From the IMG/VR virus record IMGVR_UViG_3300006805_000023: DNA of 64,000 nt. One strand, given 5' to 3'. The notes below the pieces were generated by a model. That model saw only the letters and a list, made by a program, of their open reading frames with translations. It searched no databases and was not told where the DNA came from. The stretch is from a virus (taxonomy: Duplodnaviria; Caudoviricetes). Every line of letters starts with the position of its first letter. Position 1 is the first letter of the stretch. The position numbers and the translations under genes were made by a program. Shown here one piece after another: positions 2,492 through 54,548 of the stretch.

Positions 2492-3076
2492 ATGAGCAAC
2501 ATCATCCCCTTCGTCCTCCCCGTCGTCGCAACCGCCCCTAAGACCGTCGTCACCCTCGCCGGACCAAAGCGGTTCCACACGCCCCAAGAGATCCGCGACA
2601 TCCTGAAGGCCGCCGGAGCCAACGCCTCCAAGGTCTCGGTCAAGGTCAACAGCTCTGCCAACTACATCACCGTGACAGTGCGCGATCACAAGGTCCTCCC
2701 TTTGGTCGAGAAGATCGCAGCTGACCTGGACTCCTGGAAGTCTGATATGGGCGACTGCGCATCGGGTCAGGCGGTCAACGTTGAGCTCTCCCACGCAGCC
2801 AAGGAGGCAATGGCCGCCCCGTTCATGGACGTCATCAACTACGTGGCGTCCCATGCGATCCCAGTGATGGGCCAGGGCCAGGAGATCGCGCCTGATATCC
2901 TGATCTGGCACAACACTCAGGGCCTTTGGCTCGAAACCCGCTCCGGCGTGCGTCGTTCTTACATCTGGACCAGAAACGTCGTAGCACAGGAGCCGTCGGC
3001 CCTCGCCAAGCTGGCGCTCGATCTGGCCAGCCTCACCAACGTCGTCGAAACCGAAAAAGCCACTAAAGCAGCATGA
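2492..3076 (+). CDS. Hypothetical protein
   Basis: ORF 2465..3076 trimmed to the promoter-proximal ATG (MSNIIPF). Confidence 0.8.
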   Translation: MSNIIPFVLPVVATAPKTVVTLAGPKRFHTPQEIRDILKAAGANASKVSVKVNSSANYITVTVRDHKVLPLVEKIAADLDSWKSDMGDCASGQAVNVELSHAAKEAMAAPFMDVINYVASHAIPVMGQGQEIAPDILIWHNTQGLWLETRSGVRRSYIWTRNVVAQEPSALAKLALDLASLTNVVETEKATKAA

Positions 3077-3270
3077 GACAAGAAAAACAGATCACCGCAG
3101 AAACCCGGCTGATCCGCCTTAGCTGGTGGCTCAGAAGGCAACCGCTCGACCCGCAGTTCAACGTAAAGATGGAGGCAGCCGAGGCCTTCAAAAAGCGCCT
3201 TGCCGCCTGGGTTTCGAGTGAAAACGCTGGTGAGGTAGCCCCAACGTTCCACCAAGCCACAACCGTATGA
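3073..3270 (+). CDS. Hypothetical protein (65 aa)
   Basis: ATGA overlaps on both sides. Confidence 0.7.
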   Translation: MRQEKQITAETRLIRLSWWLRRQPLDPQFNVKMEAAEAFKKRLAAWVSSENAGEVAPTFHQATTV

Positions 3271-3695
3271 TGCCACGCACCCAAGTCAAACTAGGAACCG
3301 TCAAACCGGGATGCCGCGTCTTTGTCTCCGAGGACAACGAGACGGCTGCCTTTATCCGCTCCACCACGCCACTGGAGGACACTATGTGGGACGAGGATGA
3401 TGAGGTCTGGATCGAGACCGCGACCGACCCTCGCCTGCTGATCACCGTTTACTGCAAGCACGTCGATCCCTCAGTGCGCTTCAACGGGGACGCCATCAAC
3501 ATCGTCAACCCGACGTCCATGCTGTTCAAGATCTTCAAGATGACGCCGTATCCGGAGCCCAAGAAGAAGGTCGATAACCTGTTGATCTACGGGACGGTCT
3601 GGCTGCAGAACCTGGAAGAGAAACGGTTCCTGATCCTCGACGCTGGTGCAGCCCGTGACGTCTATTTGTCCGATTTGATGCCTTACACTCAGTGA
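3267..3695 (+). CDS. Hypothetical protein (142 aa)
   Basis: ATGA-coupled ORF. Confidence 0.75.
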   Translation: MMPRTQVKLGTVKPGCRVFVSEDNETAAFIRSTTPLEDTMWDEDDEVWIETATDPRLLITVYCKHVDPSVRFNGDAINIVNPTSMLFKIFKMTPYPEPKKKVDNLLIYGTVWLQNLEEKRFLILDAGAARDVYLSDLMPYTQ

Positions 3696-3701
3696 GTTCT
3701 T

Positions 3702-3989
3702 ATGGAAATGAGAGTACGATCCAGGTCCAAGATAGTTTACGACGCCATCACGTTTGACGAACTGGTCGAACACGGCAGAAAATCCGGTGCCTCGCTGACA
3801 CGTGGGATGCCGTGGTCGTTCACTTACAAGGGGGCCAGCGTGACCCACGAGACCGACACCTGCTACATCGTAGCCGGGGTGAAGTTCCATCAGGGCGACG
3901 TTCTGGTCAGCGACCTGGGTGACGTTGATATGACCCCAGCGGTGTTCAGCCGTAGTGATTTTGAAGCCAGCTACGAGCCCTGCCTATGA
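3702..3989 (+). CDS. Conserved small phage protein (FHQGDVL...FEASYE type)
   Basis: C-terminus resembles a widespread phage family of unknown function. Confidence 0.7.
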   Translation: MEMRVRSRSKIVYDAITFDELVEHGRKSGASLTRGMPWSFTYKGASVTHETDTCYIVAGVKFHQGDVLVSDLGDVDMTPAVFSRSDFEASYEPCL

Positions 3990-4261
3990 AAGACCGCCCC
4001 TTCTACTACGTTAACCGAGATGTTACCTTAGCCTCGACAGCCGAGTCGATCCTGGAGGATGCGCCCTCTGACGGGCTCGTGATCCGCAAGGACGAAAAGA
4101 TCAACATCCTCGACAGGAAGGAGCTGGAGGACGGCTTGGTCGCCAGGAAGGTCAGGGCCGAGAACCCGCCACGCCTAGGCTGGATGACCGCTGACCACAT
4201 CGACATCGGCGACCAGTGGCGTGACAGCCGCTACGACGGTCGTTACAACTCAGCCCTTTGA
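3986..4261 (+). CDS. Hypothetical protein (91 aa), possible SH3-like
   Basis: ATGA-coupled; LVIRKDEKINILD...LGWMTADHI is SH3-like. Confidence 0.65.
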   Translation: MKDRPFYYVNRDVTLASTAESILEDAPSDGLVIRKDEKINILDRKELEDGLVARKVRAENPPRLGWMTADHIDIGDQWRDSRYDGRYNSAL

Positions 4262-4501
4262 GGGGCCGAACATCGGCGGAAGCGGTTGCTCAGGCGCGAT
4301 CTTGTACCACCTTTCAAGGTCCAACTGAGCCCCTTCGCTCCAACGGACCTTGAGCTTACGAGCGTTGGCAACGACCGGCGTGGACACGATCTCAAGATCA
4401 ACGCTGGTGCTAGGATACCAGATAGCGTGTGTCTCTGGCTTGACGACTTTGGGAGCGAAGATGGCTCCGAACATGGTGGCGAGGAATCCGCGTCGTTTCA
4501 T
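4250..4501 (-). CDS. Twin-arginine-leader protein carrying a T4 gp23-type major capsid fragment (AxARKLKxxWS)
   Basis: MKRRGFLATMFGAIFAP leader; VDLEIVSTPVVANARKLKVRWSEGAQLDL resembles T4 gp23 FRIDKQVIEAKSRQLKAAYSIELAQDL. Confidence 0.75.
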   Translation of the reverse strand: MKRRGFLATMFGAIFAPKVVKPETHAIWYPSTSVDLEIVSTPVVANARKLKVRWSEGAQLDLERWYKIAPEQPLPPMFGPSKG

Positions 4502-4614
4502 TTGTCTTTGATGGTGTCCAGGATTGCGTTGATCTCGCAGATGCAGGTCGTGGCTCCACAGCGGCAGCGTGCTGGTGGGAGGAGCCAGTCGAAGAGGCGC
4601 TTTAGCAGTTTCAT
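4498..4614 (-). CDS. 38-aa Cys-rich microprotein (not in ORF track)
   Basis: Read manually: MKLLKRLFDWLLPPARCRCGATTCICEINAILDTIKDK; ATGA overlaps at both ends. Confidence 0.7.
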   Translation of the reverse strand: MKLLKRLFDWLLPPARCRCGATTCICEINAILDTIKDK

Positions 4615-4895
4615 AAAGTGATCTTCCAGCGTGATGGTGTGCTGGCTGTGCAGAAAGGGATCTCGACGCGCCTCCTAGGTGAGGACGTGCTGACGAAGTT
4701 CATGTGGAAGATCAGACCAGTCGGACCGTCCATCGGCTGGACCTTAACGAGTTCACTGGCGAGCAGGTCTGGGTGAATCCGTCGGATCAGCGCGATCGGG
4801 AACTCCAGGAGCTTTGGCTTCGGGGTGGACAGCCGGACGACTGCCGGAGCCAGGACGGCACCGAGCAGCGTAGTAAGGAAACCGCGTCTTCTCAT
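4611..4895 (-). CDS. Twin-arginine-leader protein carrying a T4 gp23-type capsid fragment (Gol-equivalent region)
   Basis: MRRRGFLTTLLGAVLAP leader (ATG 4895; TTG 4913 alternative); IALIRRIHPDLLASELVKVQPMDGPTGLIF resembles gp23 VMGMVRRAIPNLIAFDICGVQPMNSPTGQVF. Confidence 0.8.
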   Translation of the reverse strand: MRRRGFLTTLLGAVLAPAVVRLSTPKPKLLEFPIALIRRIHPDLLASELVKVQPMDGPTGLIFHMNFVSTSSPRRRVEIPFCTASTPSRWKITL

Positions 4896-4909
4896 CCCTG
4901 GAAGAAAGC

Positions 4910-5245
4910 TCAACCGAAGTTGTCTTCCAGGTAGGTTGAAAGACCAGCCCTAGCCTCGATGGCGTCCTCGTCCTGGGAGGCGATCGAGGCCGCTCCGTCG
5001 GCCCCGTAGCCCTTGCGCCGTGCGGTCCTGGAGGCAAAGCCCCACATCACGTCGCGCAGGTCCTGGGGAGTTGGGGCTAGGGCCAGCTTGCGGATGTCTC
5101 TTTGTGGCCACTGGCCCTCCTTGAAGTACTCGATAGCAGCCTTGCGCATCTTCTCGAAATCGGACTTCGTGTCCGTGGGCTGAGGAGCCGGGTCTTCTCC
5201 AGCCAGGAGGGTTTCAACGAGGGCGTCGGGTGTCTGTGGTCTCAT
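4910..5245 (-). CDS. Hypothetical protein, possible internal head protein
   Basis: N-terminal DALVETLLAGE; TAATTAT motif 9 nt upstream. Confidence 0.7.
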   Translation of the reverse strand: MRPQTPDALVETLLAGEDPAPQPTDTKSDFEKMRKAAIEYFKEGQWPQRDIRKLALAPTPQDLRDVMWGFASRTARRKGYGADGAASIASQDEDAIEARAGLSTYLEDNFG

Positions 5246-5258
5246 GAGTGTTCAATAA

Positions 5259-5531
5259 TTAACGGTAAGCTCTGCGGTGGGCTTCGGCCATCCTGCCTCC
5301 GGCGTGGATCGCGGCAAGGTGAGGCGGGAGAGGGTAGGCGGGGACGTAGCTGGGGCACTCTGACCCGGCCATAGGCTCTTGACCGGGGCGCATCGAGGTG
5401 CCGCACTGGAAGAACATAAACGACCACACCAAATCCCGACCGCACCAATCAGGAACCAGTCTGGACTCGCGCTTCACGCCAGCCTTGCAGTAAGGGCAGC
5501 GCTTCGGTGTGGCTGGCTTGCGTGGGGTCAT
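5259..5531 (-). CDS. Small Cys-rich (CxxC) protein
   Basis: CPYC...C...C...C; ATGA-coupled to the upstream gene. Confidence 0.65.
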   Translation of the reverse strand: MTPRKPATPKRCPYCKAGVKRESRLVPDWCGRDLVWSFMFFQCGTSMRPGQEPMAGSECPSYVPAYPLPPHLAAIHAGGRMAEAHRRAYR

Positions 5532-5842
5532 CCTTCGTCGTCCTCCACTTCTGGGTCGAGCCAGCTGCCAAAGCGCATGTAAAAGGCAGCCCTGCCTTGG
5601 GCGGTCAGCTTCCCGAAGGCCTCTTTGATGGCTTTGCGATAACCGGCGTTCCAGACGGACGGGCTGTGGTCCACGTCGGCCCGGTTGACCCGGACGTCGG
5701 CACCCTGCTCGTTGAGCCAGCGTAGCATGTCGGGCAGCTCGTCGGTGGCGCGAGCCCAGGAGGAGGTGTCGAGCGGGAAGCGTGCCAGGAAGGCATCAAC
5801 GAGGTCGGAGATCTGTTGTTCGGTGAGGGAGTCGGTCTTCAT
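5528..5842 (-). CDS. Hypothetical protein (104 aa)
   Basis: Operon-like spacing, normal composition. Confidence 0.7.
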   Translation of the reverse strand: MKTDSLTEQQISDLVDAFLARFPLDTSSWARATDELPDMLRWLNEQGADVRVNRADVDHSPSVWNAGYRKAIKEAFGKLTAQGRAAFYMRFGSWLDPEVEDDEG

Positions 5843-5845
5843 GGC

Positions 5846-6136
5846 TTAGAGGGAGAAGGTTTGTGGGGCGAGGGTGGTGCGGGTCTGGGTCTCAGAGTCC
5901 CAAGTCGTGAGGGTGACGACCAGCTTGACTGCGCCACGGAAGTAATCACGGCGGATCATGCCCTGCGCCTTGCGGGCGTAGCCGTCGAGGTTGGATTTGA
6001 CGGTCTGGCCGTAGCTGGCTGCTCCGCCGGTGAGGCCGAGACTTTTGCCGGAGGCGTCCTGACAATCGACCTTGCAGTCGGAGCAGCGGACCTTGGAGTT
6101 GAGAACGGCAGGGGCTAGAGTGTAGGAGGTGGTCAT
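5846..6136 (-). CDS. Hypothetical protein, leaderless
   Basis: ORF 5846..6151 trimmed to ATG 6136, 5 nt after a class-1 promoter. Confidence 0.75.
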   Translation of the reverse strand: MTTSYTLAPAVLNSKVRCSDCKVDCQDASGKSLGLTGGAASYGQTVKSNLDGYARKAQGMIRRDYFRGAVKLVVTLTTWDSETQTRTTLAPQTFSL

Positions 6137-6141
6137 ATAGG

Positions 6142-6170
6142 AACGTAACACAGATCCTGACGTTTGTCAA
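6142..6170 (-). promoter_or_regulatory. Class-1 promoter TTGACA-N17-TACGTT
   Basis: Reverse strand TTGACA aacgtcaggatctgtgt TACGTT cctat ATG. Confidence 0.85.
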
Positions 6171-6186
6171 GTCCTCCTAGCTTCAG

Positions 6187-6193
6187 TAGTTAT
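6187..6193 (+). promoter_or_regulatory. Class-2 (putative late) motif TAGTTAT
   Basis: TAGTTAT cgac GTG(6198); the same TAGnTATCGAC context occurs at 30547-30557 and 53559-53569. Confidence 0.65.
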
Positions 6194-6197
6194 CGAC

Positions 6198-6536
6198 GTG
6201 ATCTCAGTCAAAAACGCTCTCTCATCCGCTCTGTTGGAAGCTTCCGGAAAACCCACACGGGACGAGGTCAAGGACTTCATCCTTAAGCAGACCGGCGTGT
6301 CCCTGGAGGCGTGCGACCAGCTTAAGCCATCAAGGAGGTACTACAACTTCAAGCTGAAGGACAGGGCTTCAGAGAGCGGAGAGCTTGATGTGATCCTCAG
6401 GTTTCTGCCGAGGCAGACTCTGATCAAGAAGGTTGAGCCCAACGTTACGGACGACCGCCCAGTCTTTGGTAGCGCTCGTCCTCCCTGGAACCAGAGCCAT
6501 AAAGCCAATCTGCTTCTTGGTCTCGTCCTCCCATAG
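6198..6536 (+). CDS. Hypothetical protein with MxSVxxALSxxLxE N-terminus
   Basis: GTG start after a class-2 motif; N-terminus shared with 6369..6809. Confidence 0.65.
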   Translation: MISVKNALSSALLEASGKPTRDEVKDFILKQTGVSLEACDQLKPSRRYYNFKLKDRASESGELDVILRFLPRQTLIKKVEPNVTDDRPVFGSARPPWNQSHKANLLLGLVLP

Positions 6537-7581: not shown

Positions 7582-9396
7582 ATGGACTCACTCTCCCCAC
7601 TCGCCTTTCCGTCCTTTCCACCCTCTGACCCTAATGAGCCCGTCCGTCAGGTTGGGGTTCGTGTCAATGATCAGGGAGTCACCGAGGCCTTCCAGACCGT
7701 GACGCCACCAAAGCCGTTTAACTACGAGGATCTTACGCCGGATCAACGGGACGCTCTGCAGGGCGCGGTTTACGCAGCTAACTTTGGCACCCAGCAGGAC
7801 ATCGAGGCACATCGGGAGGTGGTGCTTGGGTTTGGAGCCAGTCTGCCGGATGTCTTGGATGAGCGGGATGCCGAAGCGGCTGCTCTGTTTACTCTTGGGC
7901 TCGATCTGGCAGCGCCGGGGTCGTCGGCTCAGACCAAGAAGGTCACGATGGTCAGGCAGCTGAATCAGACGGGCCTTGAGTATCAGGAGGAGTTCAAGCG
8001 GCGGTATGAGGACCACGGGTGCTCGTGTCACGTTTCGCCACCGTGTGGCTTCTGCGTTGATCCTGGGAACCCGACCAACTTGGCGGAGGACGACTCGATG
8101 TGGGAAACGGTTCCTGTGCAGGCCGTCACTGCTGAGGAGGCTGTTCAGGCGGTGGGCGAACTGAGAGCGGCGGTGGCTAAGAAGCCGGACAAGGTTGACT
8201 ACACTCCAGGAGTCTTGGCGCAACTGGACAAGATGGGTCTGGTGATCGGCGGTGACGAAGGGCTGGGTGGTGTTCCGCAGGAAACTCTGAACGAGATCAT
8301 GGAGCGCAACCCGTTGGGCTTCAAGGGCGAGAAGTATCAAATGACAGAGACCCAGCGGACCGGACCAGCTTCGAACACCATTGACTGGTCGAAATTCAAG
8401 GCCCCTTCGCACTATAACGTTGTGGACGACCTCAAGGCGGCGACTATGAAACGCTTTGGAGCTCCCGCTGAGGCCTTGCCGGATCTGAGCGGCAACGGGA
8501 ATGATGCAGTTCTCAGCAAGACGTGGTGTCCGATCGACCGGGTAGTCGGCCAGGATACCGTCATGGGGATGCACGTCGTGGAGAACTCCGCGATGCCGCA
8601 TGACACTGTTCTTCTGAACATGGAGCAGCCGACCCCAGAGCAGACCCAGGACATCGTGCAACGTCTCCAGGCTCGACTCAACAAGCGGTTTGGAAGGACT
8701 CATGTGGCGATGGTGGGCGGCCCAAGCAACCCTCAAAGCCTCTTCCCACGCGTCAGCCAGTCGGGGAAGCGCGGCGGTGAGGAGCCGATGGCGTGGACCA
8801 ACCTTTCCGGGCAGGCTCTTCTGCTGGGGCGCATCACGGAGCTGGAGGCTCAGAACGCGGAACTTATGCTGGCTCTCCAAAAGGCGCAGCGGACTTTCTT
8901 GTTGCTTGAGAAGGAGAAATGCCTGCGGTCACGGGACGCCGACGGCACGGAATCCACGAGCCCTCCGAAGTGCGTAATCAGCGCCGTGGTTGCCATCGTG
9001 AGAGCTTTGCACGACAAGGTGCCGACCCGGACCATGAAGGCTCTGCAGGCCATCGAGTGGCTGGAGCGGGAAGGCAAGCGCTACCCGAACATCACGCTGG
9101 ACTGGTCACTGGATGATGAGGCCTGGGTGATCACGATGGGAGGCCGGTCGTGGACCTGCGACGAGGAAATGGGCGGGATCATCGGGGCGGTCGAGTCGAT
9201 CAAGAACCGCAGCGTTGACCCGTCGGCAAAAAGCTGGCCGTTCGAGGAGTTCAAGCGCGAGTTCGACGAGACGATCGGCAAGATGACCGCAGAGGAGCTG
9301 GAAGCCGCTATGGACGAGATCCGATCCAAAGAGGGCGCGACCGGCGAGGCTCCGGAAATGATCGAAAAGCACTGGGAGGAAGCTGGTGAAGCTTAA
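7582..9396 (+). CDS. 604-aa mosaic hypothetical protein (CSCHxxPPCxxC motif, portal/capsid-like snippets)
   Basis: Long ORF with the GCSCHVSPPCGFC motif; see findings. Confidence 0.8.
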   Translation: MDSLSPLAFPSFPPSDPNEPVRQVGVRVNDQGVTEAFQTVTPPKPFNYEDLTPDQRDALQGAVYAANFGTQQDIEAHREVVLGFGASLPDVLDERDAEAAALFTLGLDLAAPGSSAQTKKVTMVRQLNQTGLEYQEEFKRRYEDHGCSCHVSPPCGFCVDPGNPTNLAEDDSMWETVPVQAVTAEEAVQAVGELRAAVAKKPDKVDYTPGVLAQLDKMGLVIGGDEGLGGVPQETLNEIMERNPLGFKGEKYQMTETQRTGPASNTIDWSKFKAPSHYNVVDDLKAATMKRFGAPAEALPDLSGNGNDAVLSKTWCPIDRVVGQDTVMGMHVVENSAMPHDTVLLNMEQPTPEQTQDIVQRLQARLNKRFGRTHVAMVGGPSNPQSLFPRVSQSGKRGGEEPMAWTNLSGQALLLGRITELEAQNAELMLALQKAQRTFLLLEKEKCLRSRDADGTESTSPPKCVISAVVAIVRALHDKVPTRTMKALQAIEWLEREGKRYPNITLDWSLDDEAWVITMGGRSWTCDEEMGGIIGAVESIKNRSVDPSAKSWPFEEFKREFDETIGKMTAEELEAAMDEIRSKEGATGEAPEMIEKHWEEAGEA

Positions 9397-10130: not shown

Positions 10131-11288
10131 ATGGACCAAAAACCACTACCAACGCCGGAGCCAGGCGTCTTCCCTATTCCAGGGCCTTGTTACTACCTGA
10201 CCGGCCCCGACGCCTTCGTCCAGCTCAAGGAAACCCTGAGCAAGGCTCCGACGGACGAGGAGGCCAAGAAGGCTCTGGACGAATTTGTGATCAAGTTCCC
10301 TGACGTGGCCCGGTGGATGAAATGGCAAACTGGAGATGTCGAGAAGGCCCTCAGCCAAATCGAGCCAGCCCCTGAGCAACGCACCGCGTGGAATGGTAGG
10401 ATGCAGGCCCTTAGCATCAAGCATCAGAAGAGCATCGAGCGGGCTACCAACGTTGTTATGCAGCGCAATGCTCTCAACTTCAACATCCAAGGCACGTTGA
10501 CTGGCCGTGTGAGCGGCAGCGCCTCGAACGTGACCGAGGAGCCTAGAATCCGAGGCTGCACAAGAGCTGAGCTGGCTGAGAGGTACGATGTGTTTCTGCG
10601 CGAAGTCCGGCTGGTTCAACGCGACCTCGGTTTATTCAAGAAGAAGCCTACGAAGCCCACGGTGTGCTGGCCGATCCGAATGTGGCGCAAGCTCACTGGG
10701 TGGAAGCGTCCAGCCAAGCCGGGGCGCAAGATCCTGGACAACGAGGAACTGCACCGCTGGGCTGACCGCATCTTCAAGCGGTATCTGACAGACGCTCCCT
10801 ATATCATCCGGACCTTCTGGGGCGGATCGGTCGCTTTCATCACCAAGGACGTAGGCGGCATGCAGATGTGGTATTGCTCGTCCTTCGGGACCTGTTCCAA
10901 CAAGTCGCTCCAGTATGGGCTGCGCGTCGGCACGCTCACGAACTCCCCTGAGGCTTCGTTAGCAATGTTCAGATTGAGCTATCCTGGACTGTTCGACGGA
11001 ACAGTGGTCCCCCGAACATTTGACGAGGGGCTGTGGTGGTGGAACAAACGCTGTAGCCTGACCCCTCAGGGAGACCAGAAGCTAATGTTCAACAAGAAGG
11101 GCGAATCGTGGTGGTGGCAGGTTGTTGAGGGCAATTATTGGGCGGTCTTCAAGGGCAACCGCAGGATTTGGCCGATCAGCCGCGACGTCCAGCCGCTCAC
11201 CCCGAGGGACGCCATGATCGGGCTGCGGCTCCACGACCCAAGGATGTTGCCGATCGAAACCTTCAAAGGCTTCAAAGGAAAACTCTGA
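10131..11288 (+). CDS. Hypothetical protein (385 aa) with an isolated Pol A-like TGRxS motif
   Basis: FNIQGTLTGRVSGSASNVTEEPR; Trp-rich C-terminal half. Confidence 0.85.
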   Translation: MDQKPLPTPEPGVFPIPGPCYYLTGPDAFVQLKETLSKAPTDEEAKKALDEFVIKFPDVARWMKWQTGDVEKALSQIEPAPEQRTAWNGRMQALSIKHQKSIERATNVVMQRNALNFNIQGTLTGRVSGSASNVTEEPRIRGCTRAELAERYDVFLREVRLVQRDLGLFKKKPTKPTVCWPIRMWRKLTGWKRPAKPGRKILDNEELHRWADRIFKRYLTDAPYIIRTFWGGSVAFITKDVGGMQMWYCSSFGTCSNKSLQYGLRVGTLTNSPEASLAMFRLSYPGLFDGTVVPRTFDEGLWWWNKRCSLTPQGDQKLMFNKKGESWWWQVVEGNYWAVFKGNRRIWPISRDVQPLTPRDAMIGLRLHDPRMLPIETFKGFKGKL

Positions 11289-11289
11289 C

Positions 11290-12594
11290 ATGGACCTCTT
11301 GCCGAACCTCCCGCCCAACCTCCCACCGCCGGAACTCTCAACCCCAGAGCAGAGAAAGGCAGCCTTCATGCGTGCCATGGGGGAGCTGCACAAGCACCAG
11401 AAGGCCATTGTGGGTCTGACCAACCACGTCCGGCTCCTGCAGACCCTCGCCAAGGGCACCATGAAGGAGCGCATGCTGGTGGCTCTCCAAAACGCTGGCC
11501 CTCTTTATCAAACGCTTTGCCCACGCAAGTACCGCGACATCCCGACGCACGCTTCGCCGCGCAACCTGCTCATTATGTGCGTCCTTGCAGCTCTCGTGTT
11601 CAGGGACTATGGGGCCGTCAACGGCTTTGACCTGAAGAACATGCGGCCCGAGCAATACGCGGACCTCATGAAGCGGTCGGATTCGATGTCGCATGGTTAC
11701 GCGAAGGAGAACAGCCTGAGGCTGTGGCGTGTGATGGGCGACATGATCGAGAATGACTCGCCAACCTACTACCTCGACCAGGAGGCTTCCGAGGAAATGC
11801 TGGAGACCCAGTGTGACGACCTCAAGATGACGTGGGACGACTTCGACTGGCCTCACCCGGTCTTCATGTTGATGCCTCCGATTGGCTTGTACAAGAACAG
11901 CCCGCTGCTCATTCTGGCACACCGTGACGACCAGTACGTGACCTTCACAGGTCTGACAGAGGAGATGGTGGACTACAACCAGAAGCTGTTCGCCACCGAG
12001 TTTCCGATCAAGAGCGAGATCGGAGCTTCGGTCAAGAGCTTGATGGACGCCAAATACCACAGGCTCATAGGAGGAGACAAGATCCGGGACATGGAGGACG
12101 GCCTCAGGGATTTCATCAACAAGACCATGCAGGTGTGCGTCAACGCCCTGCTGGCCATGGTGGCGGAGCCCAAGTTTGAGGAGCTGGAGAAGTCAGGCGC
12201 GCAACCACGCCCAGCCAGTCAAGAGCGCCGTGCGCGTGACCCGTCTGCCCTCTGGAATCCGACCTTCTTCAAGATGGAACGGACCAGACAGGCGTCGGAG
12301 GGGAGTAGCGATGGTAAGGGCGGTCACCGACGCCCCCACCCACGGCGAGCGCACTGGAAGAGCGTCTGGCTGGACGGCAGCGAGGACACCCAACTGGAAC
12401 CGGGGAAACGTGCCAGGCACACCCAAGACCAGCGGGTCGCCCATTGGGTCACGAGCATTGAAGGTGACGTCGTGACCCTCAAAAACGCCGCTGGTGAGGA
12501 GAAGTCCGTGCACCGCTCCGAGGTGAAGCCGTCCAAGGTCAAGTTCCGGTGGATCAAACGCCGGATCGTCGGGCTCAAGAACCACCTAGCTTGA
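11290..12594 (+). CDS. Conserved phage protein with a C-terminal PHxRRxHW motif
   Basis: GGHRRPHPRRAHWKSVW...RWIK C-terminus typical of a phage family of unknown function. Confidence 0.85.
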   Translation: MDLLPNLPPNLPPPELSTPEQRKAAFMRAMGELHKHQKAIVGLTNHVRLLQTLAKGTMKERMLVALQNAGPLYQTLCPRKYRDIPTHASPRNLLIMCVLAALVFRDYGAVNGFDLKNMRPEQYADLMKRSDSMSHGYAKENSLRLWRVMGDMIENDSPTYYLDQEASEEMLETQCDDLKMTWDDFDWPHPVFMLMPPIGLYKNSPLLILAHRDDQYVTFTGLTEEMVDYNQKLFATEFPIKSEIGASVKSLMDAKYHRLIGGDKIRDMEDGLRDFINKTMQVCVNALLAMVAEPKFEELEKSGAQPRPASQERRARDPSALWNPTFFKMERTRQASEGSSDGKGGHRRPHPRRAHWKSVWLDGSEDTQLEPGKRARHTQDQRVAHWVTSIEGDVVTLKNAAGEEKSVHRSEVKPSKVKFRWIKRRIVGLKNHLA

Positions 12595-13944: not shown

Positions 13945-13973
13945 TTGACAGGCGCTAAGAAGCGTGTTATACT
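13945..13973 (+). promoter_or_regulatory. Class-1 promoter TTGACA-N17-TATACT
   Basis: 5 nt before ATG 13979. Confidence 0.9.
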
Positions 13974-13978
13974 TCGCA

Positions 13979-14704
13979 ATGAACCCAATGCCGTATAAGA
14001 TCAGAGCACGCAATCAAGCACTGGATGATGATGGTAAGCCGATCATGCCGGTCTGTAGGGAGTGTGGAGTTCCGGTCATCGTGTGCATTGAGTTCAAAAT
14101 ACACCCGTCGAACACTACCCTGTATAAGTCCAATGATGCTCGGTTTCGCTGCTGGAAAAGGCGCATAGCGAAGTGGGAGTCTGGCTTCAAATTCATGTCC
14201 CACTCCAAAGGCCGTAAGCTCTCTCAAGCCAACAAGGACAAGCTTAGGGCTGCGAACCTTGGTCGTAAGCTCTCTCAAGAAGCCAAAGACAAAATAGGTG
14301 CTGCAAATCGTGGACGCAAGCACTCTCAGGAGGTTAGAAATAAACAGAGCGCGATGAGGACAGGCCGCAAGCTCTCTCAGGAACACAGGGACAAACTGAG
14401 AGCCGCCAGTTCAGGCAAGACGCACACTCAGGAGACCAGAAACAAAATGAGTGCAGCACTCAGCGGTCGCGAGTTCTCCCAGGAACACAGGGACAAACTG
14501 AGAGCCGCGAGTCTTGGTCGTAAGCACTCCCAAGAAGCTAAGGACAAAGTGAGTGCCGCTGTTCTAGGACGTAGGCATTCCCAGGAGACTAGAGAGAAAC
14601 TTAGTGCTATCCACAGAGTCTCTGGCAACATCGAAAAGTTGCTTCAGCGTCGTCGTGACCGTTCCGCTCTCAAGCGCCTAGCAGCCCTAACAAAGATCTC
14701 ATGA
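13979..14704 (+). CDS. NUMOD3-repeat DNA-binding protein (8 x 17 aa), no visible nuclease domain
   Basis: Eight GRKxSQExxxKxxAA repeats; N-terminal CRECG. Confidence 0.85.
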   Translation: MNPMPYKIRARNQALDDDGKPIMPVCRECGVPVIVCIEFKIHPSNTTLYKSNDARFRCWKRRIAKWESGFKFMSHSKGRKLSQANKDKLRAANLGRKLSQEAKDKIGAANRGRKHSQEVRNKQSAMRTGRKLSQEHRDKLRAASSGKTHTQETRNKMSAALSGREFSQEHRDKLRAASLGRKHSQEAKDKVSAAVLGRRHSQETREKLSAIHRVSGNIEKLLQRRRDRSALKRLAALTKIS

Positions 14705-19594: not shown

Positions 19595-21259
19595 TCAGCG
19601 CTTGTGGTAAATGAAGCAAAGCTTCTCAGAGCCCCAGACTTTCCGGAGCAGATTCGTCTCCGCGTAGGCCGCCTCAGTGGTTGACATCTTTTGAGCCCTG
19701 CCCCAGACGGTGCGCTTGTGAACGACCCAGCCGAGCTGATCCACGTAGTAGTAGTCGGGAGCGACCGTGTGACTGAACCGGAAGTTGCTGGCCCGGTAGA
19801 GGCCGCCTGAGTGGCCCATCGTGGTGTCCGCGTAGGTCACAACGTCCTGACCGCTAAGCTTGAGACAACGCGACAAAAACCACGATCCAAGGTTCTTGAC
19901 CTGGTAGGCCGGGTCAAGCCAGAACCGCGTCAGCTCCACGGCGTCCTTGTATTTGAGGGTCTGCTCGTTGCGCTGGAACGGCCCAAACGAACACGCCCCG
20001 ATGACGGTTTCACCCGAGAACAGCCCAAGATGTTGTTTGCCACGGCTTGACCCCAGGTAATGACGCGAGTAAACGACCTGCGACTCCCGGAACGTGATCT
20101 CGCGAATCGCCAGAGCCTTGAAGTCAACTTCGTGCAACGCTGGCTTGTCAGCCAGGCCTAGCATCTCTTTGATCCGGTGCAGCACGCGCCCCTCGGTGTG
20201 GAACTCAAGCTCCCAGATCACTGCCAGCCTGACACCGGGGCAATAGCGCTCCACGTAGGTCGCCTTAGCCTTGTCACGCGGACCGGCGGCTGGCTTGCCA
20301 TGCCAGTACTCCCCGTGGCACTCGATCAAAAGGTTGTGGTCTGGAACCCAGACGTCGAAGTTCCAGGGTCCGATCGGATGCTCGGACGCCCACTTGATGC
20401 CAAGCGAATCCAGGATAGCAAACACTGCCTTGTTGAGAGATGACACCACTGGTTGGTTAGCGCGGGCCACAGCCATCTTGGCCTTGACAACCTCGCTCTG
20501 CATGGCGTCCCTGACGCTCTGCTTAAACTCTCCAGTAGCGCCAAGCTCGCGTGACTTCGCACAAAAACGCTCCACCCAGACAGGGTCGTCCCAGTAGGAC
20601 TGCAGCCGGTGCTGCAGCTCAGGATCGGCCATCGCTTCCAGGTGCCTGCGCCGAACCTCCGGGTTGTCCCAGTTGGCCTTCACAATGCCTGTCAGGCGCT
20701 CCCGGTACTCTGGGTTGGCCCAGCACTGCTGCGACATTGTGGACATAGCAGCCGCGTAGTCCGGGTCCTGCCAGCGCACCAGGGTGGCGGTGCGCAGCCG
20801 CTCGCGCAGGCTGATCGACCGCATCGCTAGCAAATGCCGGTCGCGCACCTCTGGGTTCGAGTACGACTCCTTGAGAGTCATAGCCATGTTGGCGCGGTAT
20901 ACCGGGTCTGCAGCACGCCTGCGGATCATGGTCAGCCAGCCCTCATCCTGTGACCGCTTTCTGATGGCGGCCCGCATCCGACCAGAAGTTTCTGGATCAG
21001 TCCAGGCCGCCTTGCTCTGCTGCGACAGGCGCTGGCGCTCTTCGGAAGTGGCTGGCACGCCCTTGTTATGTGGGACCACCCGTCCTTCAGCCTGTGCCTC
21101 CTTGAAACCGGCCTGCTGTTTCTCCCGATAGTCGGGTGACTTTATGACGCACTTAAAACAACGGGTCTCGCCCTTGCGCTTGCGGCGGGACACGGTCATG
21201 CGGTTCACGATCTCTATCGTTCCGCACGCCGAACATGTCACTGTGTAAACCTTAGCCAC
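19595..21259 (-). CDS. Homing-endonuclease-like fusion: Zn ribbon, WxDPExR helical repeats, Vsr/DUF559-type nuclease, Mom-like GNAT domain
   Basis: IGPWNFDVWVPDHNLLIECHGEYWHG; HYLG...ELTRFW...VVTYADTTMGHSGGLYRASNF. Confidence 0.8.
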   Translation of the reverse strand: MAKVYTVTCSACGTIEIVNRMTVSRRKRKGETRCFKCVIKSPDYREKQQAGFKEAQAEGRVVPHNKGVPATSEERQRLSQQSKAAWTDPETSGRMRAAIRKRSQDEGWLTMIRRRAADPVYRANMAMTLKESYSNPEVRDRHLLAMRSISLRERLRTATLVRWQDPDYAAAMSTMSQQCWANPEYRERLTGIVKANWDNPEVRRRHLEAMADPELQHRLQSYWDDPVWVERFCAKSRELGATGEFKQSVRDAMQSEVVKAKMAVARANQPVVSSLNKAVFAILDSLGIKWASEHPIGPWNFDVWVPDHNLLIECHGEYWHGKPAAGPRDKAKATYVERYCPGVRLAVIWELEFHTEGRVLHRIKEMLGLADKPALHEVDFKALAIREITFRESQVVYSRHYLGSSRGKQHLGLFSGETVIGACSFGPFQRNEQTLKYKDAVELTRFWLDPAYQVKNLGSWFLSRCLKLSGQDVVTYADTTMGHSGGLYRASNFRFSHTVAPDYYYVDQLGWVVHKRTVWGRAQKMSTTEAAYAETNLLRKVWGSEKLCFIYHKR

Positions 21260-47296: not shown

Positions 47297-47450
47297 TTTT
47301 ACAAGTTTAGTGCAGAGTGACCTGCGTTTGGTTTGTGTTTAACGAGTTGCCTCGTTCTCGAAACTCGTGGGGACGATACGCTCCCACGTGCCCGGATAAG
47401 GATGTTCCGCGCACCAACAGTGTCCGCGTTGGCGGTGTGGCCGCAAGAGC
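47297..47450 (-). ncRNA. Putative omega/reRNA overlapping the tnpB 3' end (5' boundary approximate)
   Basis: Hairpins at 47376-47398 and 47341-47356 (AACGAG-GCAA-CUCGUU); GGTCAC right-end-like motif ending at 47317. Confidence 0.55.
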
Positions 47451-48426
47451 CACACTGGAACTTCTCATTCGTCCGGTTGTCATTTGCTCGGTGACTGCAT
47501 TCAGGGCACGTCTGCGAGGTGTAGGCAGGGTTTACTCGGACAAACAGAACACAGTTCTCTCTGGCCTTTTGTTCAACCCTACCCAGCACAGAGGCATAGC
47601 GCCAAGGAGCAAGGAGTTTACGAAATTGTTTGCCGCGCTTGGGCTGCTTGCCTATCTTCAGGCCAGTCAGATCCTCGACCGCAACGGTTTTGAGAATACC
47701 CCAGGGAAGTTGGTTAACGCAGCGGTTCAGGTAACGATCCCGCGTGGTGCGAGCCCTACGCATCCCCTGGCCCCCTGGCTTCGCCATCCTGACGGCCTTG
47801 CCGATGGTCTTGAAGTCACGACCGATCAAGTTGCCGTCACTAGTTGCAAGAACAGTGCTGACCCCGCAATCCACGCCCAGCTCCGCACCCTCGGACCGCA
47901 GTGCGAGGTCCGGAATGTCAATCCAGAGGATGGCATACGCCCCTCTGTTTGTGAGACTAAGTTCGCAGCCTTTGGCAAGCACTGCCCCAGGCTTGCTCAA
48001 CCATTTATTAAGAACCTTCGTGGACTTCGCTGGGACGTTTATGCGGCAACCACTGCGCAGCGTGGAAACGCGCAGCCAGGTGTCGAACGCCTTGCTTGAC
48101 TTCCCGAAGGTGATGGAGACACACTTCTGGTTGACTTTGACACCGCGCTTGACCACAGGGCGGGTGGCCTTATTGACCGTGGCTCGTTGGGATTCCCGCG
48201 TCGCCTTGACTATTCCGAGCGCCTGTCGCAAAGCTGCAGCTCTGTAGTTGAACGGTAAGTGCCCGAGCGGCACAACGTCAGCAGTGGCCTTATCGAGACC
48301 GCCTTTGTTACCCCACAGAAACTTGATGTAACGGTTGCAGGCGCTCAAAAAACGCGACTCCACCGCCCGCAGCTTGCGCAGTTTGGACTCGGTGGCGTAA
48401 AGTTTGATTTTGACAGAGCGCGTCAT
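47299..48426 (-). CDS. tnpB: TnpB RNA-guided endonuclease (IS200/IS605 family), no TnpA nearby
   Basis: RuvC-I GVDCG, RuvC-II VEDL, NPAYTSQTCPEC, CGSC...NADTVGARNI. Confidence 0.93.
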   Translation of the reverse strand: MTRSVKIKLYATESKLRKLRAVESRFLSACNRYIKFLWGNKGGLDKATADVVPLGHLPFNYRAAALRQALGIVKATRESQRATVNKATRPVVKRGVKVNQKCVSITFGKSSKAFDTWLRVSTLRSGCRINVPAKSTKVLNKWLSKPGAVLAKGCELSLTNRGAYAILWIDIPDLALRSEGAELGVDCGVSTVLATSDGNLIGRDFKTIGKAVRMAKPGGQGMRRARTTRDRYLNRCVNQLPWGILKTVAVEDLTGLKIGKQPKRGKQFRKLLAPWRYASVLGRVEQKARENCVLFVRVNPAYTSQTCPECSHRANDNRTNEKFQCGSCGHTANADTVGARNILIRARGSVSSPRVSRTRQLVKHKPNAGHSALNL

Positions 48427-53926: not shown

Positions 53927-54548
53927 GGTCTGGGACAAGGTCTCACCTGAGACGCTCGCCTTCCTAGACTGTCACGAAACCATGGGACTACTGGAGCACG
54001 GCCAAGAGGCCGCTCTTGAGTTATGCGCCATGGACGCCCTGATCGAGGAGTTCGAGAGCCACATCAAGCGCAGCCCACGCCACGGGCGGGTCAGAGATAC
54101 ATGGCAGACTCTGAAAGAAGCAGTTCGTATTGGTAACGTTGGACCGCAGATCCTACTCAGGTTCTCACGCCGCACCAAAATCATGCTAGAACAAACCAGA
54201 AAAAACCGCTTCGAGGCTTCCCTGATGGAGTCGCTCCTCAACATGGGAGACCTCAGCGCCCTCGCCCCTGAAAGACTTCAGGACTTGGAGCCACACCAGG
54301 CTTTCCTACGCGAGATGGGCCGCACCTTCAAGTGTCGCAGCGGCGATCTGGCCGAATCGGTGTCGAGTGGCCTCCACGTTTACCTCGATGAAGCCGACAC
54401 CAAGAAGCTGCTGGAGCAACGCGCCATGATGCTTGAGCAGTTTGCTCTGAAGCACGGCTATCACTGCGTGCGCCGTGGCAGCATGTCGGACATCAGTCAC
54501 GGACACTCCAGCCAGCGGGTATCACGCTGGACCTTCATCAAGATATGA
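53850..54548 (+). CDS. Hypothetical protein (start uncertain: 53868 or 53982)
   Basis: ORF ATGA-coupled to the next gene. Confidence 0.7.
   Translation: MVASQSMSASPIQPQDQTAPLSFTREVWDKVSPETLAFLDCHETMGLLEHGQEAALELCAMDALIEEFESHIKRSPRHGRVRDTWQTLKEAVRIGNVGPQILLRFSRRTKIMLEQTRKNRFEASLMESLLNMGDLSALAPERLQDLEPHQAFLREMGRTFKCRSGDLAESVSSGLHVYLDEADTKKLLEQRAMMLEQFALKHGYHCVRRGSMSDISHGHSSQRVSRWTFIKI

Follow-up and report, generated by a model that had tools for sequence, protein, structure and literature searches.

What would a large phage do with two small genes, each of which appears to join a leader of twin-arginine (Tat) type to a different short segment of the T4-type major capsid protein? The question is raised by a cassette in the window, the 64-kb stretch of DNA analysed here, which comes from an uncultured phage whose contig reaches ~218 kb.

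The cassette and its two capsid pieces

The cassette consists of three minus-strand ORFs, P0001, P0002, and P0003 (Table 1), and the ATGA overlaps through which the first-pass annotation had coupled them are both present in the sequence. The same three ORFs were listed by independent gene calling on metagenome contigs. For P0001, a TTG at 4913 was also considered as the start and was rejected, the ATG at 4895 being the start that is consistent with the rest of the family. The cassette forms the end of a minus-strand run and is convergent with a plus-strand gene at 3986..4261. Between positions 3900 and 6900, a promoter scan found none, and terminator-like matches did not exceed chance level. 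Among the RNA runs on record, none was listed as containing the cassette stretch.

Table 1. Features of the cassette and its surroundings (positions are those of the window)
Feature	Position	Strand	Description
P0001 gene	4611..4895	(-)	94 aa: Tat-like leader, linker, gp23 motif 1, basic tail
P0001 leader, residues 1-20	4836..4895	(-)	RRRGFL start, then 16-residue uncharged stretch
gp23 motif 1 of P0001, residues 34-72	4680..4796	(-)	Pfam Gp23 positions 9-47, T4 gp23 96-133
P0002 ORF	4498..4614	(-)	38 aa, Cys-rich, between P0001 and P0003
P0003 gene	4250..4501	(-)	83 aa: paralogous Tat-like leader and gp23 motif 2
P0003 leader, residues 1-20	4442..4501	(-)	KRRGFL start
gp23 motif 2 of P0003, residues 34-66	4304..4402	(-)	positions 2-33 of the focused capsid profile
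Four small genes upstream of the cassette	4910..6151	(-)	111, 90, 104, and 101 aa; tight spacing; without family matches

The middle ORF, P0002, had no homologues and no likeness to capsid proteins when compared with family and capsid profiles. In a natural variant contig, 116 bases of P0002 are skipped while P0001 and P0003 remain intact and still coupled, and because it is absent from this variant, P0002 is either dispensable or not a gene. A relative that is ~88% identical provided a second comparison: of the five P0003 changes listed for it, three are synonymous and two give V43I and A47V (16 further changes across the compared stretch lie outside those listed), the P0001 indels total +3 bases, and the listing places ~20 changes at the 3' end of the adjacent gene. 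We concluded that P0001 and P0003 are very probably two real, translationally coupled accessory genes of this architecture.

The capsid resemblance, proposed in the first-pass annotation from the letters alone, was confirmed for both outer proteins. Residues 34-72 of P0001 matched positions 9-47 of the Pfam Gp23 family (PF07068) with an E-value of 5.1e-9 and 36.5 bits against a cut-off of 24.4; the motif also matched the major head protein group PHROG 138 (E 9.5e-9), and residues 34-71 aligned with residues 96-133 of T4 gp23 from solved structures. For P0003, the Pfam match was weak (residues 32-65 on positions 132-165, E 0.05), and a focused profile of 62 columns, built from six full-length gp23-type capsid proteins, scored its payload at 20.9 bits, a value reached by none of 2000 shuffles, the best of which scored 4.6. 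On a 427-position capsid profile the two pieces stood in the order in which they occur in gp23, with P0001 at 71-121 and P0003 at 189-229. The P0001 motif is homologous to the most conserved stretch of T4 gp23, which lies within the first quarter of the protein, and that of P0003 to the next conserved block, which in the HK97 fold presumably comprises the E-loop return strand and the beginning of the spine helix.

Neither protein approaches the length of a gp23-type capsid protein. The gp23 family spans ~376 profile positions in proteins of 420-520 aa, whereas each mini-protein holds only 33-39 of these residues, and coverage of PF07068 was confined to the two stretches named above, well short of its full length. 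Unlike gp23, the mini-proteins have neither the HK97 fold nor a propeptide; in place of the gp23 N-terminus they carry a leader of export type, and their genes are located away from the head module. The AlphaFold model contained no globular fold (pTM 0.25), and a predicted complex of the P0001 payload (residues 24-94) with the P0003 payload (residues 21-83) scored 0.00, with both chains poorly folded, an outcome that speaks neither for nor against an interaction.

Paired leaders of twin-arginine type

The two outer ORFs begin with paralogous RRGFL leaders, as first noted, in which 14 of 24 residues are identical. The P0003 leader was the only other significant tblastn match of P0001 in the window (E 2e-5). 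The first 60 bases of the two genes agree at 44 positions, and many of the differences are at synonymous sites; at the protein level, the identity of 12 of 20 residues exceeds the 95th percentile (10/20) of leader pairs taken between genomes.

Both leaders, M-R-R-R-G-F-L in P0001 and M-K-R-R-G-F-L in P0003, fit the Tat consensus (S/T)-R-R-x-F-L-K, as does the R-R-x-F-(L/F)-K of the wider family described below. On average, the family leaders have an n-region of +3.2, an h-region of 16 residues with a Kyte-Doolittle value of 1.8, and a value of +1.4 for the 15 residues that follow; they thus show the short, mildly hydrophobic h-region, rich in Gly, Ala, and Thr, and the basic c-region that are expected of Tat signals. 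The uncharged stretch of ~16 residues is too short for a stable membrane span, and in the AlphaFold model the P0001 leader is a confident helix (pLDDT 86-89). Curated models gave a more divided picture: the Tat model TIGR01409 matched 8 of 36 family members (best 8.4e-5), PF10518 matched 7 of the 36, all under the Pfam cut-off, and P0001 itself matched neither model. P0105 and P0005 also gave weak matches to PF10518. The original reading of the leaders as Tat signals is supported by the consensus, the composition, and, in a minority of members, the curated models, but does not extend to a model match for P0001.

The likeness to typical Tat substrates also has its limits. Most family members are without a clear A-x-A cleavage site, the motif occurring in 11 of 34 leaders where the h-region ends or close by (as A-P-A in P0001, but not in the P0003 leader), and the genes are phage-encoded. 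Tat passengers are folded, cofactor-bearing enzymes, whereas here the passenger would be an unstructured peptide of 50-70 residues. We consider that the leader probably targets its peptide either to the Tat translocase or to the cytoplasmic membrane. An origin of the leader in a capsid propeptide was also considered, as BLAST aligned the P0001 leader with a G-F-L-T-E upstream of motif 1 in a cyanophage capsid protein; this alignment and a similar one in another contig (L014) involved only a few residues each, and they were rejected as chance.

A family of leader-plus-motif mini-proteins

The architecture of P0001 is not confined to the window. A phmmer search of 1.84 billion representative proteins returned 98 matches for P0001, and the plan of leader plus motif 1 recurred in ~44 clusters of proteins of 60-125 aa that aligned with it from residue 1. 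Members begin with an M-x-R-R-x-F-(L/F)-K leader, which a linker connects to gp23 motif 1, and a short tail follows. In an alignment of 36 members the first Arg was invariant and the second was present in at least 90%, giving a consensus of M-x-R-R-x-F-F-K-T-L-x-G-A, and all 36 matched the Pfam Gp23 family. Within motif 1, the small proteins were 47% identical to one another and 47% identical to capsid proteins, which themselves shared 52% identity, so that, judged by sequence identity, motif 1 is as conserved in the mini-proteins as in real capsid proteins. The P0001-type proteins thus form a widespread family; we found leader-plus-capsid-piece mini-proteins of this kind described in no paper, and they are apparently undescribed.

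The family genes are complete ORFs inside phage operons. One T4-like carrier contig has its copy after gp59 and gp32, another carrier is a 259-kb contig, and a third, of 104 kb, encodes a T4-type portal together with a complete gp23-type capsid protein of its own. The small protein P0063 was 58% identical to the resident capsid protein and 67% identical to a foreign one; not being closer to the resident capsid, it fits neither simple co-evolution with the capsid of its phage nor recent copying. The capsid gene of the window phage itself was not found by tblastn in the 64 kb; P0064, the best full-length capsid match, was rejected for this role as it belongs to another phage.

Among cultured phages the family was not seen. 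Searches with P0001 and P0028 by tblastn returned full capsid genes alone, at 2517 places in 2514 records, of which three records with two places each were left uninspected. The window's first 20 kb had no megablast match among cultured phages, and neither the exact DNA pattern nor the neighbouring 604-aa protein had relatives among viral contigs; the aligned family is too divergent to be captured by a sequence pattern.

Second capsid pieces were found in only three or four of eight contexts, and they differ from one another. P0105, which follows P0028, joins a leader to the spine helix (21.6 bits; 0/2000 shuffles), and a 115-aa ORF with a leader in contig L009 carries a motif from the capsid C-terminus (16.9 bits; 0/500 shuffles). 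P0003 had no detectable homologues of its own, and conservation of the pair therefore rests on analogous rather than homologous second ORFs. Word-based searches with P0001, P0003, and P0105 recovered nothing beyond the query proteins, and for P0003 a protein atlas gave sub-threshold leads alone, to viral hypothetical proteins and proteins with Tat signals.

These comparisons bear directly on whether the cassette could be the non-functional remains of a gp23-type gene that was cut by frameshifts or mobile elements and acquired its leaders by chance. The two pieces do stand in gp23 order at ~98 codons apart, compared with ~80-120 in real capsid proteins, and mobile elements abound in the cassette-bearing genome, which encodes HNH and NUMOD3 endonucleases, an intein, and a TnpB-like protein. 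Decay should also have left other traces of the capsid gene, yet when three full-length capsid proteins were aligned by tblastn to positions 3900-5400, they matched only the two motifs, each in the frame of its own ORF, with nothing between or beyond them in any frame. Nor does decay account for an architecture that is kept in ~44 clusters with near-invariant RR, for the many synonymous differences between the paired leaders, or for a natural variant that keeps both outer frames and their coupling. We regard this explanation as extremely improbable and already largely refuted, and the view of a built module, advanced in the first-pass annotation, is upheld by the recurrence of the architecture, the second leader ORFs elsewhere, the lack of residual capsid similarity, and the variant.

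Candidate partners of the capsid motif

Each mini-protein can be viewed as two modules, a signal of twin-arginine type and one signature segment of gp23. The capsid piece, for which the model gave no globular fold, would not be a folding unit; it would instead bind in trans whatever partner binds the same motif in real capsid proteins, and as a mimic it would titrate, sequester, or relocate that partner. That a stand-alone peptide keeps the motif residues as well as whole capsids do suggests constraint by such a trans-binding partner. We therefore favour, tentatively and at somewhat less than even confidence, the reading that the mini-proteins act as mimics of a capsid contact motif. The sparse A-x-A motifs (11/34) and the lack of a Tat-model match for P0001 stand against it, as do the lack of detectable P0003 homologues and the finding that P0063 is no closer to its resident than to a foreign capsid protein. 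For a mimic that served as a decoy, export would separate it from EF-Tu and the known capsid sensors, which work in the cytoplasm. The first candidate for the partner of the mimic would be a host factor able to detect the conserved capsid motif, for instance a capsid-sensing defence resembling Lit, although we consider this identification unlikely; capsid subunits, either of the phage itself or of co-infecting T4-like phages, would be the second candidates. As possible functions, the first-pass annotation had suggested a decoy that occupies capsid sensors, an anchor for capsid assembly, or an inhibitor of dominant-negative type.

The Gol region of T4 gp23 is the trigger of the Lit protease encoded by e14. 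Gol has been described as the most conserved region of gp23, situated in the first quarter of the protein, which binds domains II and III of EF-Tu and inhibits its GTPase (PMC3014915). Going by this published description alone, the P0001 motif would correspond to the Gol region, and the link to Lit and Gol is made only through motif 1 being the most conserved, first-quarter part of gp23. The mention of CapRel as a comparable sensor in the first-pass annotation gained no specific support.

The same correspondence raises the alternative that the proteins modulate EF-Tu or translation, with the Gol-like segment of P0001 binding EF-Tu and the leader holding the complex at the membrane. It has been proposed that the most conserved region of gp23 binds EF-Tu in all T4-related phages (PMC3014915), the T4 residues aligned with P0001 lie in the first quarter of gp23, and the retention of motif residues by a stand-alone peptide argues for a partner in trans. 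This alternative leaves unexplained the other capsid pieces in P0003, P0105, and the ORFs with the C-terminal motif. EF-Tu is moreover far too abundant for simple titration, and we judge an EF-Tu modulator very unlikely.

A further possibility joins the mimic to its leader more closely. Folded complexes can be transported by the Tat system through 'hitchhiking', and the leader might serve as a deportation tag, with a folded target bound to the motif (an immune sensor, EF-Tu, or a capsid subunit of a competitor) being dragged to the membrane or across it. Several sensors would then be covered by a cassette that holds several motifs. We consider deportation a long shot; if true, it would constitute a new anti-defence principle in which the sensor is relocated rather than blocked.

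If the partner were a capsid subunit, two other roles could be envisaged. In the first, the proteins would be morphogenetic helpers, the membrane-tethered contact segments nucleating, anchoring, or timing assembly of the phage's own proheads at the inner membrane, a role that can be likened to the membrane-associated initiation of head assembly in T4. The pieces are segments that make contacts between subunits, as we take them to be from HK97-fold capsids, and the motif is conserved to the degree seen in real capsid proteins. Those carriers that possess T4-like genes also encode a gp23-type capsid protein of their own, and in one carrier the gene lies 0.8 kb upstream of the T4-type portal in the orientation of the head module. 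Against such a role, the genes in the window and in most other contexts are found among early or accessory genes rather than head genes, a positive N-terminus or Tat export would place the payload in the periplasm, away from proheads, and P0063 is no closer to the resident than to the foreign capsid protein. As the family was not found in the 2514 cultured records with gp23-type genes (with the three uninspected ones noted above), it is not needed for assembly of the T4 type, and we regard a helper function as quite unlikely.

In the second, the proteins would act against co-infecting T4-like phages, either by capping the capsid lattice of the competitor in a dominant-negative manner or by excluding superinfection from a position in the envelope. 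The fit of the motif to the general gp23 consensus rather than to the resident capsid protein would suit such a weapon, as would the location of the genes in accessory regions rich in mobile elements, and in T4 the small envelope proteins Imm and Sp exclude related phages. T4-like carriers would poison their own assembly unless some specificity exists, and none is visible; in addition, capsids assemble in the cytoplasm, whereas the leader is directed outward. A role in phage competition is decidedly doubtful.

Should the mini-proteins prove to be working proteins, phages have repeatedly excised the most conserved contact segments of the capsid, added an export-type leader, and kept the product under selection. 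The mini-proteins are ready-made natural peptides with which capsid assembly and capsid-sensing defences could be probed, and they may point to an undescribed use of the Tat pathway by phages.

Among known systems, the T4 antiholin RI, Imm, and Sp are likewise small accessory proteins of a large lytic phage that start with a signal or an anchor; they are unrelated in sequence to the mini-proteins and carry no capsid-derived payload. The capsid-directed proteins of satellites (CpmB of SaPIs, Sid of P4, and Ccm of PICIs) provide a closer parallel in their target, being proteins of mobile elements that act on capsid subunits via capsid-like or capsid-binding surfaces. They are cytoplasmic, have no export leader, and are carried by satellites, whereas the mini-proteins are borne by large phages. 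Ccm consists of a whole capsid fold and CpmB and Sid are unrelated scaffolds, unlike the short capsid pieces found here.

Two coupled genes, each with a leader and a capsid piece

The genes of P0001 and P0003, the outer two of the cassette, are real and coupled, and each combines a twin-arginine (Tat)-type leader with a piece of capsid protein. The P0001/P0002 and P0002/P0003 junctions are both ATGA stop/start overlaps, and the same three ORFs were called independently on public metagenome contigs holding the identical protein, the longest of 218,247 bases. Residues 34-72 of P0001 corresponded to positions 9-47 of the Pfam Gp23 family (PF07068; E 5.1e-9, over the curated cut-off), and also matched PHROG 138, major head protein, and residues 96-133 of T4 gp23 in solved capsid structures. 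Because the Pfam match of P0003 (positions 132-165) was weak and reached only E 0.05, a focused profile of 62 columns was built from six full-length gp23-type capsid proteins; on it the P0003 payload, the part after the leader, scored 20.9 bits over positions 2-33, the best of 2000 shuffles reaching 4.6. The two pieces keep capsid order, falling at 71-121 (P0001, motif 1) and 189-229 (P0003, motif 2) of a full-length capsid profile of 427 positions, on which P0002 and the product of the upstream 111-aa gene gave no match. The two capsid-fragment fusions proposed in the first-pass annotation were thus borne out by the Pfam and focused-profile scores, the weaker half (P0003) included.

Variant contigs from wastewater and freshwater runs, covering parts of 4100-5300 at low depth, served as supporting evidence only. 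On a 143-base contig (run X1), 4501 was joined to 4618, with 116 bases of P0002 replaced by nine others; on the minus strand the P0001 stop falls two codons later and the P0003 ATG two bases past that stop, so that in this supporting case loss of P0002 leaves the outer genes intact and still coupled. In a relative of about 88% identity, the changes listed for the covered part of P0003 number at least five (V43I, A47V and three synonymous ones); 16 changes lie across the covered stretch beyond those listed, and at least 20 or so listed changes fall in the adjoining 3' end of the converging gene. P0001 has gained three single bases in this relative, together one codon. Just past 4263, at the P0003 3' end, other contigs diverge from the window, a pattern suggestive of mosaic joints.

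A family of leader-bearing mini-proteins

Since the spacing of the two pieces is roughly that in capsid genes, a collinear pseudogene was tested for by searching 3900-5400 (tblastn) with three capsid proteins of full length. Only the two motifs were recovered, each in its own ORF frame, and there was no capsid similarity in any frame between and beyond them. We regard as decisive against a decayed gene the result of a sensitive search with P0001 among 1.84 billion representative proteins. Of its 98 matches, three were capsid proteins of full length, about 44 were small (60-125 aa) and aligned from residue 1, and about 50 were small and leaderless, many resembling N-terminal capsid fragments. 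The search for homologues joining a leader to a gp23 fragment found some 44 small proteins, and these, with the lack of residual similarity around the motifs, support the earlier view of a built module; that the cassette represents non-functional remains is very improbable.

The plan shared by the 36 aligned leader-bearing members was a leader, a linker of 10-25 residues, motif 1 and a short variable tail, and all 36 matched Pfam Gp23. Their consensus start is M-x-R-R-x-F-(F/L)-K-T-L-x-G-A; no member lacks the first R, and at least 90% have the second. Across 33 residues of motif 1, small proteins were 47% identical to one another and 47% identical to capsid proteins, and capsid proteins 52% identical among themselves; the mini-proteins conserve the motif as strictly as real capsids do. 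The tails of P0010, P0033, P0014, P0016, P0006, P0004 and P0021 abound in Trp, Lys and Phe and resemble a cationic, amphipathic helix of the kind that binds membranes; P0001, too, has a strongly basic mature part (net +6 by our count). Among the leaderless matches, P0027, P0045, P0069, P0072 and P0095 form a motif-1 subfamily with a shared C-terminus (W-x-K/R/Q-E-G-F), and many others resemble N-terminal halves of capsid genes, with the usual L-L-E-N-Q propeptide motif. A divergent full-length capsid protein on contig L014 ends motif 1 with F-H-M-N, a signature common to it, P0001 and many mini-proteins.

The family of P0001 is widespread, and the same design recurs with other capsid pieces. 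Family members are complete ORFs within phage operons, and a second capsid piece occurred in about three to four of eight contexts. On the T4-like contig L007 (gp59, gp32, gp51, gp53, gp2), P0028 follows gp32 and overlaps with P0105; this neighbour opens with another twin-arginine leader (PF10518, E 0.005), and its payload corresponds to the capsid spine helix (21.6 bits, 0/2000 shuffles) at profile positions 27-61, just past the part covered by P0003. On L009, P0010 has a 115-aa leader ORF 77 bases upstream whose payload matches the capsid C-terminal motif (16.9 bits, 0/500 shuffles), and a 206-aa leader ORF with a weak capsid match farther upstream. On L008, the leaderless P0107 just upstream of P0009 weakly matched the capsid C-terminal region (6.2 bits, 0/500 shuffles). 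The second ORF beside P0005 (L002) has a paralogous leader and no capsid likeness, and no second capsid piece accompanied P0004 (L003) or P0018 (L011). On the 104-kb contig L019, the mini-gene lies 0.8 kb upstream of a T4-type portal gene and the phage's own gp23-type capsid gene 11.5 kb downstream; over motif 1 the mini-protein was 58% identical to the resident capsid protein and 67% to a foreign one, which argues for an old paralogue and not a recent copy. Among cultured phages, searches with P0001 or P0028 returned capsid genes only.

Leaders and possible function

P0001 starts M-R-R-R-G-F-L and P0003 M-K-R-R-G-F-L, and in both an uncharged stretch comes next. Their leaders share 14 of the first 24 residues, and the P0003 leader was the sole other significant match of P0001 in the window (six-frame search, E 2e-5). 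Leader identity (12/20) exceeded the 95th percentile of between-genome leader pairs; at the DNA level 44 of 60 bases were identical, and since many differences sit at third codon positions, the copies are old and kept at the protein level. Across the family, the n-region carries a charge of +3.2 and the 15 residues after the h-region +1.4; the h-region is uncharged, averages 16 residues (Kyte-Doolittle 1.8) with Gly, Ala and Thr abundant, and lacks the length to span a membrane stably. An A-x-A motif was present in only 11/34 members. Curated Tat models matched 8/36 (TIGR01409, best 8.4e-5) and 7/36 (PF10518), all weakly, and P0001 matched neither. Judged by sequence features, the leader would qualify as a Tat signal, with putative export and cleavage. 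Very similar leaders on L015 and L012, one beginning M-N-R-R-D-L-F-K-G-A as does P0004, precede payloads without capsid likeness; the leader is a portable module in these phages.

An AlphaFold model of P0001 from the family alignment (pLDDT 71.7, pTM 0.25) gave a confident helix at 3-21, two short motif helices and coil elsewhere. We infer that the payload does not fold as a unit of its own; as it yet keeps the motif residues, the motif would act by binding in trans to a partner, which the mini-protein would compete for, sequester or relocate at the membrane. Such mimicry as a mechanism is plausible, if somewhat short of probable; within it, a host factor recognising the capsid motif, an anti-defence role, is the partner ranked first, though unlikely taken by itself. 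P0001 appears to carry the stretch described as the Gol region, 29 residues within the first quarter of gp23 and its most conserved part, which binds EF-Tu domains II and III so that the Lit protease can cut EF-Tu, binding proposed as general among T4-related phages (PMC3014915). Action in the phage's own head assembly and interference with co-infecting T4-like phages are each somewhat less likely than the anti-defence reading, and modulation of EF-Tu by the mini-proteins is improbable. All cytoplasmic targets meet one main objection, the outward direction of the leader; a speculative 'hitchhiker' reading takes this orientation as the mechanism itself. Full-text literature on Gol/Lit, twin-arginine signals with capsid proteins, capsid decoys and Tat in T4-like phages held no description of such genes, and as far as searched this kind of gene is undescribed.

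Genome setting

The cassette ends a run of small genes, and a plus-strand gene converges on it. Genes of the phage (G+C about 58%) include those for a DnaB-like helicase, another helicase and a tail-fibre-like protein, along with several homing-type elements; no near relative turned up among cultured phages when the first 20 kb was compared.

Features of the window and of other phage contigs
Source	Feature	Coordinates	Strand	Length (aa)	Remarks
Window	P0001 gene	4611..4895	minus	94	
Window	P0002 ORF	4498..4614	minus	38	
Window	P0003 gene	4250..4501	minus	83	
Window	Converging gene	ends at 4261	plus		
Window	Gene run	4910..6151	minus		small, closely spaced
Window	Big gene	7582-9396	plus		no clear family
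Window	Big gene	10131-11288	plus		no clear family
Window	Big gene	11290-12594	plus		no clear family
Window	Homing-type endonuclease	13964-14704	plus	246	NUMOD3 motifs, E 4e-18
Window	Homing-type endonuclease	19595-21259	minus	554	HNH, homing-endonuclease and Mom-like PHROGs
Window	TnpB-like gene	47299-48426	minus	375	Cas12f1-like TNB domain, E 1.7e-18
Window	Intein protein	54545-57355	plus	936	Hint and intein-splicing domains, residues ~401-813; LAGLIDADG endonuclease domain, 653-711
L007	Permuted tmRNA gene	186-537	plus		Alphaproteobacteria-type, RF01849, E 9e-23
L007	gp32 to mini-protein gene	5550-6265			~700 bases without called gene
L012	Leader ORF	1908-2261	plus		
L014	gp23-type capsid gene	2794-4059	plus	421	
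L015	Leader ORF	2998-3534	plus		

Among the three big neighbouring genes, the 434-aa product was listed as AcrVA2-like (PF26125) in a precomputed table and absent from our Pfam scan, and the 385-aa product had a weak DNA_pol_A palm match (E 4.6e-4, below cut-off). The interval on L007 between gp32 and the mini-protein gene contains several G+C-rich hairpins followed by T runs, with no Rfam family found; the tmRNA type of this contig, which carries a mini-protein pair, hints at an alphaproteobacterial host. The TnpB-like gene of the window lies in a large lytic-type phage genome.
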